In this document: piece after piece, positions 9,868-53,628 of the stretch
Layout of the letters: every line of letters begins with the position of its first letter
Position numbering within the stretch: position 1 is the stretch's first letter
Origin: an uncultured Pseudomonadota bacterium
GTDB lineage: Bacteria; Pseudomonadota; Alphaproteobacteria; RF32; CAG-239
Assembly (NCBI GenBank): GCA_949292335.1
Contig: CASEYY010000031.1
Location: forward strand, 1,075-65,074
Direction of reading: 5' to 3'
Length of the DNA stretch: 64,000 bases
Position numbers and translations under genes: made by a program
The notes under the pieces: model-generated
Databases searched by the model: none
Told to the model about the DNA's origin: nothing
What the model saw: the letters and a program-made list of their open reading frames with translations, nothing else

Positions 9868-9889
9868 ACATTTATATAATGGCTTTTTG

Positions 9890-10325
9890 TTTTATTCGAT
9901 TCTCGGACGCCAAAAAAGTCATCCTCGGATAAAAAAGTTACCCTCGGGCACCACAAAAAGTCATCCTCGGACTTGTTCCGAGGATCTTCCCTCTGTCGTC
10001 ATCCTCGGACTTGTTCCGAGGATCTCCCCTCTGTCGTCATCCTCGGACTTGTTCCGAGGATCTCCCCTCTGTCGTCATCCTCGGACTCCGACCCGAGGGT
10101 CTCTCTGCCATTACCATCCACAACACACTCCAGTCATCCTCGGATAAAAAAGTCACCCTCGGACGCCACAAAAAGTCATCCTCGGACTTGTTCCGAGGAT
10201 CTCTCTGTCATCACCATCAGCCACAACACACTCCCGTCATCCTCGGACTTGTTCCGAGGATCTTCCCCTCTCCTGTCACCCTCGGGCTCCGACCCGAGGG
10301 TCTCATAAGCTGTAGCACATTGTTT
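9890..10325. repeat. dense array of REP-like palindromic units including a perfect 38-bp x3 tandem (9960-10073)
   Basis: gtcatcctcggacttgttccgaggatct(t/c)ccctctgtc is repeated three times head-to-tail. A ~68-bp larger unit (gtcatcctcggataaaaaagtYaccctcggRcRccacaaaaagtcatcctcggacttgttccgaggatc) occurs twice. A ccctcgggctccgacccgaggg hairpin also occurs twice. Confidence 0.85.
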
Positions 10326-10329
10326 TTAT

Positions 10330-10556
10330 CAGATTCTCGGGACAGGCCCGAGAATGACGAAAAGAAAAAACAAGCCCGAGAATGACAAAAAAAGAAAAAA
10401 CAAGCCCGAGAATGACAAAAAAAGAAAAACAAGCCCGCAAAAGCGAGGAAAAAAATCCCGCATGAGAATGACAATAAAGAAACCCTAAAACCACAACTAA
10501 GAATACAAGTCCCAAGAATGACAATAAGAACAAATCCCAAGCACCTTCCTAAATAA
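10330..10556. repeat. short tandem repeats of the aagcccgagaatgacaaaaaaagaaaaaac type (about 5 copies, degenerating)
   Basis: gagaatgaca is the reverse complement of the tgtcattctc arm seen at 1076. Period ~29-30 bp. Confidence 0.75.
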
Positions 10557-10736
10557 TACACTATTTAATCATCCGGCTTGGGCGACTCTGCCGATAATTT
10601 TTACAAATTTGTCAAAATTATCACAAAACCGTAACAAAAAAAACCGCGATTTTCACGACACTTCCCCCATACAGTCCTTGATTTTATTACATTTTATCGT
10701 TTTTATAAAAAAATTGACAAAAATGACAAATACCCC

Positions 10737-10765
10737 TTGACCCACCCCTCAAAATATGGTATAAA
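10737..10765 (+). promoter_or_regulatory. sigma70-like promoter (TTGACC-17-TATAAA) for the small OMP gene
   Basis: ttgacc / cacccctcaaaatatgg / tataaa, read directly. Confidence 0.4.
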
Positions 10766-10870
10766 TAAATCATAAGAAAAAATTATTTATTTATTATTTA
10801 GAAAAAGGGACAAACAGGATGCCCCTTTCGCCCAAAGAAGATAATTTCCCACGGCGATAAAACCAAAAAT

Positions 10871-42130: not shown

Positions 42131-42177
42131 AAAAAAGGTGTCAAATGCCTTTGCTAAGACATTTAACACCTTTTTTA
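42131..42177. terminator. bidirectional terminator (aaggtgtcaaatg...catttaacacctt)
   Basis: 13-bp stem with 1 mismatch, A6 before and T6 after. Confidence 0.55.
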
Positions 42178-42194
42178 AGGACTTCAGACACTAA

Positions 42195-42854
42195 TTAATA
42201 GCGCACATAATCCTTAAGGTTATCCTCCCAACGCGGACGAAATCTTATTTCGCCGTAGGAGAACTTGCTTGGAGCTTGCTCCATAGCATCATCTTTATGA
42301 TCCATGGTAATCATTCCGTTTACCATGTTCACAAAAATGTCTTTCTTCCCTCCGGTTTCAAACACTCGAAACGGAATTTTCTTTTCCCCAATCATATAAA
42401 CGCCGCGATATTGCGGTGTTCCTAATTGAAAAAAACAAGCAACCCTTTCGGCAGCATTGAGTGCCGCCTGATATACCATAACGTTCCTAGCGTCCATGAT
42501 ATTTGAGAGGTGACCTTCTTTATCTCGCAAATAGGTGCGGGCTTCCGTCGCGTAGCGACCTCTAACCAGGGACCCCAAGCGCACCGGAATCTTCTGATAT
42601 TCATTATTGATATCAGGTTCCAATGCGAAGCCCATACCCATGGGATAAGCCTCTGAGAGAGCCGTCACAATCCCGGTAAACTTATCAGGAAAAAACTCTC
42701 CCGTTTCTTCCTCATAAATACCGGAAAGAAATCTTTCTAGGCGTTCAAATTTTTCCGAACGAGTCGGGCTGGCAGTTCTCAGCCTAATCGGACCTTCCCC
42801 GCTCAAGTAATAATCCCGAGAAATCGTTGGGATTACAATGTTTTCTTTTGCCAT
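42195..42854 (-). CDS. hypothetical protein, 219 aa, no recognisable domain
   Basis: ORF bounded by strong terminator structures on both sides. No TM segment or signal peptide. Confidence 0.5.
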   Translation of the reverse strand: MAKENIVIPTISRDYYLSGEGPIRLRTASPTRSEKFERLERFLSGIYEEETGEFFPDKFTGIVTALSEAYPMGMGFALEPDINNEYQKIPVRLGSLVRGRYATEARTYLRDKEGHLSNIMDARNVMVYQAALNAAERVACFFQLGTPQYRGVYMIGEKKIPFRVFETGGKKDIFVNMVNGMITMDHKDDAMEQAPSKFSYGEIRFRPRWEDNLKDYVRY

Positions 42855-43011: not shown

Positions 43012-43476
43012 TTATTTTTGCCACCTGATTTGCCGCAAAGCTTCGCCCACTACCATTGCCGCCGATATTGCCATATTTATTGAACGAGTATCCGGCGACA
43101 TCGGAATTACCACTCTGGCGTCAGCCAAATTATGCACTTCTTCGGGTACTCCCGCCGATTCGCGTCCCATCAAAATAATGTCGTTTTTTCTAAATTGAAA
43201 ATCGGTATAAGGTTGGCTGGCTTTGGTTGTCATCAAAACGATGCGCCCGTATTCTTGCGGGTTTTGAGTACGAAACTGCAAAAAATCATCCCAGGAATTA
43301 TGCCTGCGATATTCCACCTTATCCAAATAATCCATACCGGCGCGTCGCATTGCCTTTTCATTAAACACAAAACCGCAAGGTTCAATAATATCCAAAGGCA
43401 AATCCAAACAGGCTCCCAGCCTGAGCAAAGTTCCGGTGTTTTGCGGAATATCGGGTTGAAACAAAGCCAAACGCAT
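43012..43476 (-). CDS. trmL: tRNA (cytidine/uridine-2'-O-)-methyltransferase TrmL (SpoU/TrmH family)
   Basis: MRLALFQPDIPQNTGTLLRLGA... and ...ILMGRESAGVPEEV......V.IPM....RSINMAISAAMV trefoil-knot motifs. 154 aa. Confidence 0.85.
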   Translation of the reverse strand: MRLALFQPDIPQNTGTLLRLGACLDLPLDIIEPCGFVFNEKAMRRAGMDYLDKVEYRRHNSWDDFLQFRTQNPQEYGRIVLMTTKASQPYTDFQFRKNDIILMGRESAGVPEEVHNLADARVVIPMSPDTRSINMAISAAMVVGEALRQIRWQK

Positions 43477-43518
43477 TTTTATATCCTCTAAACAAGAAAG
43501 TTTTAAAAGTTATACGAG

Positions 43519-43866
43519 AAGTAAATATACAAGTAGGAATCCGCTCTTTTTTATTTATTCAATGTTTAGCGAGATTAATACGCAGTATATTTACGACGAA
43601 GTGTACACAAAAGAGGTACATGAGGAGTAAATATACAAGTAGGAATCCGCTCTTTTTTATTTATTCAATGTTTAGCGAGATTAATACGCAGTATATTTAC
43701 GACGAAGTGTACACAAAAGAGGTACATGAGGAGTAAATATACCAGTAGGAATCCGCTCTTGTTTATTTATTCAATGTTTAGCGAGATTAATACGCAGTAT
43801 ATTTACGACGAAGTGTACACAAAAAAGGTACATGAGGAGTAAATATACAAGTAGAAATCCGCTAAA
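43519..43866. repeat. 106-bp tandem repeat, 3 full copies plus a diverged partial 4th
   Basis: gagtaaatat recurs at 43625, 43731 and 43837, giving an exact 106-bp period. Copies differ by 2-3 substitutions. Each unit contains the AGTGTAC...GGTACATGA hairpin core. The terminal partial copy ends in cgctaaacattgaataa, the reverse complement of the unit-internal ttattcaatgtttagcg. Confidence 0.9.
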
Positions 43867-44971
43867 CATTGAATAAAAAGTTTAGCAAATCGCCGTCTTG
43901 CACCACATACTCTTTTCCTTCGGAACGCATTTTGCCGGCTTCTTTGCAGGCCTGTTCACCACCCAAAGTAACAAAATCATCATAAGAGATGGTTTCGGCA
44001 CGAATAAAGCCGCGTTCAAAGTCCGAGTGAATGATACCGGCACAGACCGGTGCTTTCGAACCTTTAACAAATGTCCAGGCTCTGACTTCTTTGGGGCCGG
44101 CAGTAAAATAAGTTTGCAGGCCCAAAAGATTGTAACCCTCACGAATAATTTTCGACAATCCGGTTTCTTTTAAGCCCAAAGTCTCCAAAAATTCTTTTTT
44201 CTCGGCTTCGTCATCAAGCTGAGCCACTTCCGATTCTATTGCCGCCGAAATAATTACCGCACGAGCATTTTCTTCTTTGGCCTTTTCAAACACTCTTTTA
44301 GAAAATTCGTTACCCTCTGCGGCCGCCGCCTCATCGACATTACATACATACAATACCGGTTTTGCGGTCAAAAGCTGCAACATTTTATAGGTTTTATAAG
44401 CATCTTTATTGCTCTCATCGGGAGCGGCGGTACGAGCCGGCTGTCCCATTTTCAAGGCTTCGATAATCGGAGCCATAACCGACACATTAAGGATGGCTTC
44501 TTTATCACCGCCTTTGGCTTTTTTCTGAGCCTGATCAAACCTTTTTTCCAAAGATTCCAAATCGGCAATCATTAACTCGGTTTCAACAATTTCGGCATCA
44601 CGAATAGGGTCGACCGAACCTTCGACATGGGTAATATTTTCGTCTTCAAAACAACGCAACACATGAATTATGGCATCCACTTCACGAATATTGGCCAAAA
44701 ACTGGTTGCCCAAGCCCTCACCCTTGGAAGCACCTTTAACCAATCCGGCAATATCAACAAATTCGAGTTGGGTCGGCACAATTTGTTTGGGTTTTACAAT
44801 ATCGGCAAGCTTTTGCAACCTCTCATCCGGCACTGCCACCCTACCGGTATTTGGTTCAATCGTACAAAACGGAAAATTGGCTGCCTGTGCCGCAATGGTT
44901 TGGGTTAAGGCATTAAACAAAGTAGATTTTCCCACATTAGGCAATCCGACAATACCGCAATTAAATCCCAT
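43862..44971 (-). CDS. ychF: ribosome-binding ATPase YchF (Ola1)
   Basis: [18 protein letters not shown].....[19 protein letters not shown]-terminal TGS domain. Confidence 0.93.
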
Positions 44972-49539: not shown

Positions 49540-50112
49540 TTAGTTGTTTAAGAATGAGGTCAGAGCGACAAAAGTTTTTCTAACCGCCTTTGCCATATCG
49601 CCTCCTTTTAAAAAGGCCAAATGGACTGTATTATCTCTTGCTAATTCTTTATCTAACTCCTCTGTCTTAAACAAACTGAAAATTTCCAAATTTTTGGCGG
49701 CTGCCATAATTTTCTTATGCCCGTCTTCACCTGCATCGGAGGCCTCCAACAAAAACTCGACATTATTTTTTTTCAAAGCCTCTGTCACCTTATCCATTCC
49801 GCAAACCAAACATCCGGCTTTGCGAGCCAAAGACACGGCATCAAGAGCCTGCTTGTGCAAAATATTTTCGACCTGAGTTACTAACTCATCTCCGACTTTT
49901 GCTTTAATTTTTAGAGCTTTGGCAAACAAATTTGCCTTTACGGCTTTTTGCAACAACGACTTTGCATTGCAAACATAAACCCCTTTACCGGGCAATCTTT
50001 TCTTAAAATCCGGCACCACGGTTCCGTCAGGCAACACGGCAAAACGCAACATCTGTTCTTTTTCTGTCACGACAGAGCTTGCAATACATTTTCTGGTCGT
50101 TTCTTTTTGCAT
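49540..50112 (-). CDS. YlxR (DUF448)-L7Ae-like RNA-binding fusion protein between nusA and infB
   Basis: RKCIAS...E.LRF (DUF448 core). The C-terminal half resembles L7Ae/L30e. Position between nusA and infB is typical of alphaproteobacteria. Confidence 0.75.
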   Translation of the reverse strand: MQKETTRKCIASSVVTEKEQMLRFAVLPDGTVVPDFKKRLPGKGVYVCNAKSLLQKAVKANLFAKALKIKAKVGDELVTQVENILHKQALDAVSLARKAGCLVCGMDKVTEALKKNNVEFLLEASDAGEDGHKKIMAAAKNLEIFSLFKTEELDKELARDNTVHLAFLKGGDMAKAVRKTFVALTSFLNN

Positions 50113-52348: not shown

Positions 52349-52504
52349 TTTGTCGGCGAAAAATCGCTTTGAGATGAGCCGTACAAAAACAAAAAACGCG
52401 GAGAATGGTTCAGATAAAGCGATTAAAGTTGCAAATGCGAGTGAGTGTACATTAGCGGTACATGACCGAGCATTTGTCGGCGAAAAATCGCTTTGAGATG
52501 AGCC
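52349..52504. repeat. pair of 32-bp perfect direct repeats (tttgtcggcgaaaaatcgctttgagatgagcc) 124 bp apart, in the rimP-nusA-infB leader
   Basis: Copies at 52349-52380 and 52473-52504. The intervening segment contains hairpin-element instance C (52432-52476). Confidence 0.85.
52432..52476. repeat. structured hairpin element, instance C (caaatgc-gagtg-AGTGTAC-attagc-GGTACATGA-ccga-gcatttg)
   Basis: Conserved core with a compensatory outer stem. Confidence 0.6.
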
Positions 52505-52518
52505 ATTATACGCGTTTT

Positions 52519-53628
52519 TTACCCGTCTTCCAAATGAAGCAACAAAGATACTGCTATTGAGGCGGCAATGATTGTGGGGGCAATAACCGCAAGACCAACC
52601 GGAAGATTATCACTGGTGCCCATGGCATAAACCACTTGCGATAAGAAATAAGCCGAAAAACCGGTAACAATACCGCCGACAATTAAAAACATAACGCCGC
52701 CGCGACGGTTATTGGGACGCAAAGCAAATACCGCCGCCATCAACACCATTGCAATCAAAAAAAACGGCGAAACCATCAAGGACCAAAAACGCATTTGATG
52801 CCTTTGTATTGCAAAGCCCGACTTATCATAAAAACTTATTACTTTAGGCAACTTCCAAAAAGATATTGCTTCCGGTTCCAAGAAATTGTCTTGAATTTTG
52901 TTCATATCCAAAATGGTCTTATACTGCATATTTCCCAATTTTTCGACTGGTTTCCCTGCCGCATAAATTGTAACATCCTTCAAATCAAAAAAGCCTTTTT
53001 CCAGCACTCCGGCAAAAGCTTCAATTTGCCTTATCGGTCGTGATTTTGCGTCTATTTCGCTTATACTGACACCTCTTAACAACAAGTCCCCGTTTTTTTC
53101 TTGCTGTAGTGTTTTGGCCTGCATGACCATGACATTGTCACCATCAAGAGCTTCCCTTATCCATAATCCGTCATCTGAAAACATAACTGCCGAAGGATCT
53201 TTATTTTCCATTCTTCGTTCCAAAACTTCAAACATATTGTACAAATCGGCCGCCACCGGATTAATCAAAGTCACATTTATGACCCCGATGACAAATGTTG
53301 CCAAGCACACCGGTGACAAAAAATCCCAAATTGAAACGCCGGCCGCCCGCATTACCACAAATTCATTGGTTTTACTCAATTTCCAAAAAGTTATCATTGC
53401 CGCAATCATCATCACAAACGGGAATACTTGCTCGGCGGTTTTAGGTAACCTTGCCACCGCAAGTTGCACGGCAAACCACACATCCAAATCGGGATGTCCG
53501 GCGATACGACGCAATCTTTCCACCATCTCAAACAGAAAGATAATACCCAAAATGACCAACAACACCGCCAAAAAGTTAAAAACTATTTGTTTGATTAAAT
53601 AGCGGCCGAGAATAGAATTTGCTTTCAT
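52519..53628 (-). CDS. LPS export ABC transporter permease, LptF/LptG (YjgP/YjgQ) family
   Basis: RYL.K.....L.VLL.......L...V..L.......D block. 6 TM segments with a large periplasmic loop. 369 aa. Confidence 0.8.
   Translation of the reverse strand: MKANSILGRYLIKQIVFNFLAVLLVILGIIFLFEMVERLRRIAGHPDLDVWFAVQLAVARLPKTAEQVFPFVMMIAAMITFWKLSKTNEFVVMRAAGVSIWDFLSPVCLATFVIGVINVTLINPVAADLYNMFEVLERRMENKDPSAVMFSDDGLWIREALDGDNVMVMQAKTLQQEKNGDLLLRGVSISEIDAKSRPIRQIEAFAGVLEKGFFDLKDVTIYAAGKPVEKLGNMQYKTILDMNKIQDNFLEPEAISFWKLPKVISFYDKSGFAIQRHQMRFWSLMVSPFFLIAMVLMAAVFALRPNNRRGGVMFLIVGGIVTGFSAYFLSQVVYAMGTSDNLPVGLAVIAPTIIAASIAVSLLLHLEDG

Follow-up and report, generated by a model that had tools for sequence, protein, structure and literature searches.

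A hairpin built on the ychF stop codon and amplified in tandem: a candidate cis-acting RNA element of uncultured gut Alphaproteobacteria

The stretch analysed here (hereafter the window) comprises 64,000 nucleotides (nt) of contig CASEYY010000031.1, positions 1,075 to 65,074, from assembly GCA_949292335.1 of an uncultured alphaproteobacterium (GTDB lineage RF32; CAG-239). Between ychF and a trmL-like gene it carries a tandem array of 106-nt units, the first of which forms an extended hairpin with the coding end and stop codon of ychF. The features of the locus, all on the minus strand, are as follows.

43862–44971, minus strand: ychF, encoding the redox-regulated ATPase YchF (open reading frame (ORF) with 507 bits to TIGR00092, above its cut-off)
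43860–43877, minus strand: arm A, the 5′ arm of the hairpin, TTTATTCAATGTTTAGCG, made up of one T, the codons for L, F, N and V, the stop TAG, and CG; 100% complementary to three copies of A′
43766–43877, minus strand: first complete extended hairpin, 112 nt, ~41 base pairs (bp) broken by small internal loops, its apical loop rich in U (minimum free energy −42.2 kcal/mol, z −11 against dinucleotide shuffles; 133 bits to R1, a covariance model built from 12 hairpins)
43771–43869, minus strand: 32-codon hydrophobic ORF, from an ATG inside the last ychF codons to the A′ arm; probably incidental
43758–43863, minus strand: repeat unit 1, 106 nt (Tandem Repeats Finder (TRF) and repeat search, family D1)
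43652–43757, minus strand: repeat unit 2, 106 nt, with core hairpin at 43674–43757 (TRF and repeat search; 80.4 bits to R1 over model positions 18–101; folds as its own hairpin in the 441-nt RNA fold)
43546–43651, minus strand: repeat unit 3, 106 nt, with core hairpin at 43568–43651 (TRF and repeat search; 80.7 bits to the covariance model; folds as its own hairpin in the 441-nt RNA fold)
43554–43571 (unit 3), 43660–43677 and 43766–43783, minus strand: A′ arms of the three units (inverted repeats I1–I3, perfect complements of arm A)
43516–43545, minus strand: truncated fourth unit, head only, adjoining the trmL leader (0.3 copy in TRF; register alignment)
43477–43515, minus strand: trmL leader, with the GTTTAGAGGAT junction and a Shine-Dalgarno sequence at 43483–43496; direct repeat D3
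43012–43476, minus strand: the downstream gene, encoding a TrmL-like SpoU-family tRNA 2′-O-methyltransferase (PF00588; best family TIGR00185 at 133 bits, below the cut-off of 190.6)

A 106-bp tandem repeat in 3.3 copies had been described in an earlier note made from the letters of this DNA, and TRF returned it at 43516–43863 with 97% matches, zero indels and a score of 661. A repeat search gave three in-register copies at 106-nt spacing with 94–100% mutual identity, and neighbouring units are separated by the two to three substitutions that the note had counted. The note's placement of the array between ychF and trmL also holds, the downstream gene being TrmL-like with a score under the family cut-off. 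Read 5′ to 3′ on the minus strand, each unit consists of a head (x and stem B, an internal loop, and apical stem C joined to C′ by a U-rich loop) and a tail (an internal loop, B′, x′ and A′), followed by an A-rich linker, and the whole array reads as head plus tail three times over, then a cut-off head, then the trmL leader. The units are contiguous, without unique sequence between them, and the array is therefore not one of clustered regularly interspaced short palindromic repeats (CRISPR), in agreement with the note.

The note had the array capped by an inverted partial copy of the unit. The complementarity is real, as the 18-nt arm CGCTAAACATTGAATAAA (43860–43877) is fully complementary to TTTATTCAATGTTTAGCG in every unit, but the arm is not an inverted, truncated unit: it is the native 3′ end of ychF (LFNV, stop and CG). 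On the minus strand arm A reads TTA TTC AAT GTT TAG CG, the last ~13–15 coding nt of ychF plus TAG making up most of it. The C-terminus ...LLNFLFNV* is common to relatives of the window's YchF, and the FLFNV* end is identical in relatives that lack the element; arm A is therefore native coding sequence, and it is the units that carry its complement, A′. An element that brought its own terminal inverted repeats was rejected on the same evidence. The long hairpin that the note expected between this end and the last full copy does form in prediction: 43766–43877 closes into the 112-nt structure, with a basal helix of 22 contiguous predicted pairs and the A′ arm ~76 nt downstream of the 5′ arm. 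As in stop-proximal hairpins of the repetitive extragenic palindromic (REP) type, the stem lies at the stop codon, beginning 13 nt 5′ of its first base and taking it in, and this is true of all three homologous subtypes described below. RNase III substrates have at least ~20 bp of near-continuous double-stranded RNA, a length that the 22 contiguous basal pairs (~41 in total) are predicted to reach. When 441 nt of RNA were folded, the ychF end paired with unit 1, leaving every inner unit to form an 84-nt core hairpin of its own.

The pairs of this hairpin covary strongly. Twelve first-unit hairpins from the subclade, representing nine species-level variants, were aligned, and pairs were called with RNAalifold. 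Compensatory double changes were found at 11 of the 41 predicted pairs, paired cells amounted to 96.5% across the 12 sequences vs 32–48% with slid partners, and the observed covariation score was reached by none of 500 shuffles. Five double changes offset synonymous or stop-codon changes in ychF (TTA to TTG, TTC to TTT, TAG to TAA, and GCG to ACG or ATG), and in the array of one species (L053) two paralogous units differ by a compensated G-C/A-U pair. In a family alignment across three subtypes, 15 of the 25 inner pairs carry double changes, and a hand comparison of the 18-bp basal stems of L119 and L179 gave ~4 compensated pair differences. The repetitive structured RNA that the earlier note had offered as one possible product of the array is compatible with this pattern.

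The element also changes more slowly than its surroundings. For the same species pairs, we compared identity in the non-coding part of the hairpin with identity at the four-fold degenerate sites of ychF. Between the window and five relatives, the two values were 0.99 and 0.83 (L063), 0.94 and 0.74 (L044), 0.89 and 0.57 (L041), 0.75 and 0.47 (L004, a sister species), and 0.72 and 0.37 (L010). Within the hairpin, conservation falls from the stems (0.80–0.86) through the internal loops (0.72) to the apical loop (0.60), and the neighbouring trmL leader is not alignable between species by eye. The hairpin is under purifying constraint, and its slower divergence relative to four-fold sites argues against the neutral fossil duplication that the note had named as the scenario contrary to its own. 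It also argues against arm-to-arm correction as the sole explanation, since correction would not slow divergence between species.

To place the element among relatives, ychF loci with 86–99% YchF identity were fetched, and a genome collection was scanned with a two-arm pattern. Five alphaproteobacterial metagenome-assembled genomes (MAGs) matched, each at a single locus and always between ychF and trmL. The note had raised the presence of the unit elsewhere in the genome: a search of the window for a 54-nt core of the unit gave three matches and no more, all within the array (zero matches in 100 shuffles), and the two-arm pattern likewise found one locus per genome. Close TrmL relatives derive from human-gut metagenomes. 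The covariance model extended the family to a distant gut lineage (L118–L121, TrmL 74–75% identical) and to L179. In L118–L121 the hairpin again begins in the last ychF codons and stop, with AATGTT-T-GATTTTG pairing with CAAAATC-AACGTT, and the next gene is an inserted ORF of 173 amino acids (aa), trmL lying ~0.9–1 kb off. In L179 the inner part is homologous, a different basal stem of 18–19 bp follows the stop, and extra pairing reaches into the ychF coding end. The 5′ arm thus takes in the terminal ychF codons and stop in nine subclade variants, in L179 and in L118–L121. A homologous hairpin on the ychF stop with a different next gene in L118–L121 shows that the element belongs to the 3′ end of ychF and not to a trmL promoter. 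It is an uncatalogued element of uncultured gut Alphaproteobacteria.

Two further relatives, L026 and L117, have long hairpins directly behind the ychF stop that are unrelated in sequence to the element. These (L026:2611–2745, and ~135 nt after the ychF stop in L117) are mutually homologous and constitute a third hairpin type, which the model missed. The L026 hairpin folds far better in antisense (−56.7 vs −37.2 kcal/mol), with six G-U pairs in antisense only, which hints at the opposite strand as the functional one there.

Copy number varies among relatives, including contigs with identical YchF, in line with the earlier description of the array as a variable number tandem repeat (VNTR); all copy numbers come from short-read metagenome assemblies, some at 2–5× coverage according to contig names. 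The window's array is 106 nt × 3.3, and others are 101 nt × 2.5 (L006), 105 nt × 2.4 (L027), 107 nt × 1.8 (L041) and 109 nt × 2.2 (L053). Hand counts gave ~1.7 units in L063 and ~1.4 in L044, whose YchF proteins are 99.5% and 98.9% identical to that of the window. Within a sister species, contigs encoding an identical YchF protein have ychF–trmL spacers of 76, 177 and 278 nt, equal to 0.45, 1.45 and 2.45 units of 101 nt, the 76-nt allele coming from one contig. The distant lineage L118–L121 has 98-nt units in 1, 2.1 or 3.1 copies. A partial head precedes the trmL leader in most element-bearing species, truncated at a point that varies by species. Two short-read assemblies encoding identical TrmL and YchF have contigs that run into the array from either side and stop there; with k=87 (taken from contig names), such breaks imply repeated stretches of at least 87 nt and therefore at least two units, the figure of 3.3 itself not being confirmed by them.

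Among relatives without the element, several have the 9-nt spacer TAAGGATAAAAAATG between ychF and trmL (L012–14 and L098), and in others the spacer measures 24 or 34 nt, or the junction holds a canonical terminator or inserted genes; tight coupling of the two genes was probably the ancestral arrangement. In the window's trmL leader, the GTTTAGAGGAT junction and Shine-Dalgarno sequence resemble the ychF-stop/trmL-Shine-Dalgarno junction of an outgroup with a 9-nt spacer, and the GTTTAG-GGAT junction may be a vestige of that ancestral arrangement. Downstream of arm A come an inverted A′ and then a direct repeat of the post-stop sequence. This direct-inverted-direct layout and the putatively vestigial junction ahead of the trmL Shine-Dalgarno sequence suggest an origin by fold-back template switching.

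The reading that we favour, with moderate confidence, is that of a selected hairpin at the 3′ end of ychF, most likely a cis-acting sense RNA that affects translation termination or mRNA stability and uncouples the downstream gene, the array being a by-product. Transcription of the sense strand across the hairpin is very probable, since ychF and the downstream gene point the same way and a scan of the interval found neither a terminator nor a promoter, save for one promoter-like match within the units that depends on a single-nucleotide polymorphism (SNP). Once the last ribosome has left, the hairpin would zip over the stop region to give a very stable 3′ or intercistronic structure, whose stem would hide the last ~13–15 coding nt and the stop codon whenever ribosomes are absent. 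Such a structure would impede ribosomes on their way to the stop codon or during termination there, for which REP hairpins near stop codons give a precedent; it could also, or instead, shield the ychF message from 3′-to-5′ decay by blocking 3′ exonucleases, or present its 22-bp helix to an enzyme of the RNase III type. In each of these cases the downstream gene, only 9 nt from ychF in relatives without the element, would be uncoupled. The sequence that follows the stop codon recurs as a direct repeat at the end of every unit, so that replication slippage or unequal recombination would add or remove units of ~100 nt, giving extra stand-alone core hairpins and copy-number polymorphism. With direct repeats of ~100 nt and hairpins that promote slippage, such change would be expected; a mechanism of this kind has been proposed for the Wolbachia repeats VNTR-105 and VNTR-141.

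Several observations weigh against this reading. Transcription through the array is deduced from operon context, and copy numbers come from the short-read assemblies described above. The asymmetry between G-U and A-C pairs is weak (~7 sense vs 3 antisense independent events in the subclade, by our own tally), the antisense strand folds as stably or more so, and neither comparison was decisive for the active strand, or for RNA over DNA. One sister-species contig (L005) lacks the full hairpin and retains the apical stem-loop only, so that either the hairpin is dispensable or the contig is misassembled. The loops hold no conserved motif that would point to a particular protein partner. Finally, a template switch can yield ‘compensatory’ changes in one event, without selection on each pair (PMC8794818), and covariation is therefore weaker as proof of selection; the slow rate of evolution is still not explained by it.

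This last point underlies the strongest alternative, which we nevertheless regard as improbable: that the element is a functionless DNA quasi-palindrome, born of a fold-back template switch, its arms matched by recurrent correction and its units the unstable junk of slippage. The succession of arm A, inverted A′ and direct post-stop repeat is what a fold-back template switch is expected to leave, such events can create or repair a stem at one stroke (PMC8794818), strand asymmetry is not clear, an allele without the hairpin is known (L005), and the ychF–trmL junction is a general insertion hot spot in the clade. Junk of this kind should not, however, remain 72–99% identical where four-fold sites have fallen to 37–83%, as arm correction does not slow divergence. 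Its internal loops and bulges have also stayed mismatched yet conserved, instead of being ‘perfected’, and the structure has been kept across three diverged subtypes at the same position on the stop codon.

The earlier note had proposed that the array modulates the adjacent trmL promoter, and a VNTR that tunes the promoter or 5′ leader of trmL, its units carrying promoter elements or setting spacing so that copy number sets trmL expression, is an idea that we consider unlikely. In the window's subclade the array does lie directly 5′ of trmL, in most element-bearing species with a partial head ahead of the leader, and one unit variant gives a promoter-like match, TAAACA-18-TATATT. That sole match needs a SNP found in a single unit that is not beside trmL, and a scan for sigma-70-like promoters from the last unit to trmL (43477–43560) found none. 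The hairpin is fixed to the ychF stop; how far it lies from trmL, and how it meets it, changes from species to species, the leader being joined at a different point of the unit each time. In L118–L121 the array precedes another gene, with a promoter-like TTGACT (by eye) between them. Promoter modulation is accordingly not borne out.

A cis-antisense small RNA, encoded on the window's plus strand across the 3′ end of ychF, would make the hairpin a functional RNA that pairs with the ychF stop region; we think this slightly less likely still. The antisense strand folds better than the sense strand both for the window's hairpin (−49.3 vs −42.8 kcal/mol) and for the array (−125 vs −112), some sense mismatches are G-U pairs in antisense (for example pair 37–82 in three species), and the unrelated L026 hairpin has its six antisense-only G-U pairs. 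Our scan, however, found no promoter-like site ahead of the units on the plus strand, and neither strand has a terminator behind the hairpin. In the family alignment, G-U pairs of the sense strand outnumber A-C pairs compatible with antisense by about two to one, and by reading of the fold the AAUGUU/AACGUU pairing of L118–L121 uses a U-G wobble that is possible only in the sense strand.

It is also very unlikely that the constraint stems from a 32-aa hydrophobic protein, translated by termination-reinitiation or a +1 shift from the ORF at 43771–43869, with the hairpin hiding its start as for a type I toxin or membrane micro-protein. This ORF is open in all nine subclade species, its N-terminal half is conserved and hydrophobic with a basic tail in either frame, and a second unit has gained an in-frame ATG in L015 and L053. 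Against this, the open stretch shared by the nine species covers the N-terminal ~17 codons, the C-terminal half falling in two or three frames, and no Shine-Dalgarno sequence precedes the ATG (by reading). Variable sites by codon position (5:5:9, our own count in alignment A1) show a weak bias, and radical changes such as V to E occur, each compensated on the opposite arm of the stem. A 5′ arm rich in T accounts for the hydrophobicity, the ATG arises incidentally where the Asn-Val codons AAT GTN meet and is found in outgroups as well, and the ORF is missing from the hairpin subtypes of L179, L117 and L026 (by reading). Least probable of all is an assembly artefact of repeat collapse or expansion, which the contig ends of the same strain within the array and the low coverage of some metagenome assemblies might suggest, but which is hard to square with units that bear distinguishing SNPs, with breaks at k=87 that need at least two units, and with the same array design in at least seven independent assemblies and species from different assemblers.

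The selected ychF hairpin was also compared with recognised classes of element. Rfam 15 gave no match in the window at gathering thresholds, and at E ≤ 10 just chance matches to long-hairpin plant microRNA precursors (22 bits vs a gathering score of 119); a search for tRNA and transfer-messenger RNA genes found none present. An intrinsic terminator was rejected, as there is no U tract behind the hairpin, A-rich sequence follows it on both strands (by reading) and the scan finds none between ychF and trmL; the genome's ordinary terminators differ in look (e.g. 42131–42176). Membership of a dispersed family of REPs, bacterial interspersed mosaic elements (BIMEs) or miniature inverted-repeat transposable elements (MITEs) was rejected because an unfiltered search of the 64 kb with model R1 returned the array alone, the next-best match, at 20 bits, being an ordinary terminator. 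Nor were dispersed copies seen in the five alphaproteobacterial genomes, which have a single locus each (whole genomes were scanned only with the both-arms pattern). A blastn search against plasmids and phages and a scan of metagenomes with the two-arm pattern gave no match.

Integron attC sites have R″/R′ core sites of consensus RYYYAAC ... GTTRRRY, follow a mobile cassette ORF and form arrays beside an integrase. The arms here, GTTTAGC ... GCTAAAC, have one mismatch per core and the reverse order relative to the ORF, and in every relative the neighbours are housekeeping genes in conserved synteny; attC was rejected, although no search for an integrase was made in the window. A promoter within the unit was set aside, given the single SNP-dependent match and the lack of a conserved −35/−10 arrangement in the last units of different species. 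So was an antisense ORF of 38 aa (43620–43736 and 43726–43842, plus strand), which is not conserved: the sister species has no ATG there, and units of 101–109 nt break the frame. A mimic of a tRNA anticodon stem for TrmL autoregulation was rejected on an apical loop of 7–10 nt whose sequence is not conserved, and a double-stranded DNA operator (TGTAC...GTACA) on half-sites that are variably spaced and covary as a stem.

The two-arm pattern returned ~60 other matches, all Bacteroidota palindromes of ~90–115 nt that are unrelated to the ychF element and present in several copies per genome. Their hosts fall within L028–L094 (e.g. Fibrella spp. L028, L032, L033, L036, L038, L056, L064, L071, L078 and L094), and their arms are built of 7-nt periodic TAAACAT/TAAACGT/TAGACGT repeats. 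Elsewhere in the window, 9868–10870 is a ~1-kb intergenic stretch dense with short palindromic units, apparently a REP/BIME-like cluster, unrelated in sequence to the ychF array. It includes GTCATCCTCGGACTTGTTCCGAGGATCT at 9960–10087 (38-nt period × 3.4, 98% identical), a related CCCTCGGGC...GACCCGAGGG variant, and 30-nt repeats containing CCCGAGAATGAC at 10342–10437. Two more long-range inverted repeats, at 52391–52520 (22-nt arms, 86 nt apart) and 49544–49674 (16-nt arms, 99 nt apart), may represent additional extended hairpins broadly similar in style.

The junction between ychF and trmL is itself hypervariable in the clade (L017–L025, L100, L108–L116 and L118–L121), with spacers from 9 nt to 1.3 kb. 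Inserted ORFs of 166 aa (YchF P0031 group) and 173 aa (L118–L121) occur, and other loci have ~736-nt spacers; from this variety of spacers and insertions we conclude that the junction is an insertion hot spot. Within the P0031 group, L021 (3199–3432, compared with 3199–3294 in L017, L018 and L022) has a 138-nt GC-rich, highly palindromic insertion just 5′ of trmL that is not in sister contigs, a separate MITE-like presence/absence polymorphism at this hot spot. On the other side of trmL, directly 3′, lies an ORF of 219 aa (42195–42854, minus strand) without an NCBIfam or Pfam family, whose position is kept (209–240 aa) in most fetched relatives with the element or a 9-nt spacer, the P0031 group being the exception; the first canonical terminator (42131–42176) comes after it.

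At this locus the coding end and stop codon of a universal gene serve as one arm of a long hairpin that covaries strongly and evolves slowly, and the design has been retained in several diverged lineages and repeatedly amplified into arrays of ~100-nt units. The hairpin is well supported as a candidate new structured cis-element, and its natural compensatory variants are numerous enough for the design of experiments. The array is also a ready strain-typing marker for an uncultured gut clade, and offers a concrete reason why short-read MAGs of this clade break at the ychF–trmL locus. A bolder proposal, which we put forward speculatively and consider improbable, is that the ‘ychF stop-codon hairpin’ is a dedicated and hitherto undescribed class of cis-regulatory RNA that gates termination and decay of the mRNA for a ribosome-associated ATPase, the dose of VNTR units, in the manner of a contingency locus, letting strains of gut Alphaproteobacteria heritably tune YchF (and TrmL). 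If copy number does tune expression, the array would be a simple heritable rheostat on a translation-associated operon.

Among the closest known systems are the Wolbachia repeats VNTR-105 and VNTR-141, which are intergenic, have periods of 105 or 141 bp with hairpins in each period, and vary in copy number between closely related strains; hairpin-promoted slipped-strand mispairing and concerted evolution between periods have been proposed for them, and tandem repeats of Ehrlichia ruminantium are mentioned alongside (PMC3287509). As in Wolbachia, the array described here is alphaproteobacterial, intergenic, long in period, hairpin-bearing and variable in copy number. In contrast to the 23-bp hairpins with 9-bp stems of the Wolbachia periods, the whole unit here is one extended hairpin of ~85–112 nt and, unlike those repeats, it is anchored on the stop codon of a housekeeping gene, covaries, and is conserved well above the neutral rate.

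The element resembles stop-proximal REPs and intercistronic stabiliser hairpins in placing a stable hairpin against the stop codon of the upstream gene in a co-directional pair. In 1988, Higgins et al. reportedly linked REPs to protection of the upstream mRNA. For REP hairpins less than 16 nt from a stop codon, ribosome stalling and lower translation of the upstream gene have been shown (Liang, Rudd & Deutscher 2015, as summarised in PMC12306157). Whereas REPs are ~35 nt, GC-rich and dispersed in hundreds of copies, the ychF element is AT-rich, measures ~112 nt and occupies one locus per genome, and, unlike theirs, its 5′ arm consists of coding sequence, the stop codon included. Hairpins processed by RNase III between cistrons, such as the sites in phage T7 early mRNA or the rnc and pnp leaders, provide a further parallel. 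The likeness is one of predicted fold: a near-continuous helix of at least ~20 bp with small internal loops, between genes of one transcript.

Template switching is known to create and maintain the stems of RNA hairpins (PMC8794818), and the ychF end, its inverted copy and the direct repeat, together with multi-base ‘compensatory’ changes, are shared with quasi-palindromes of that origin; template switching describes a mutational origin, not a function, and does not explain the slow evolution seen here. Hairpin-bearing intergenic VNTRs and stop-proximal hairpins are thus each already known, and it is their combination at the 3′ end of ychF that is unusual.

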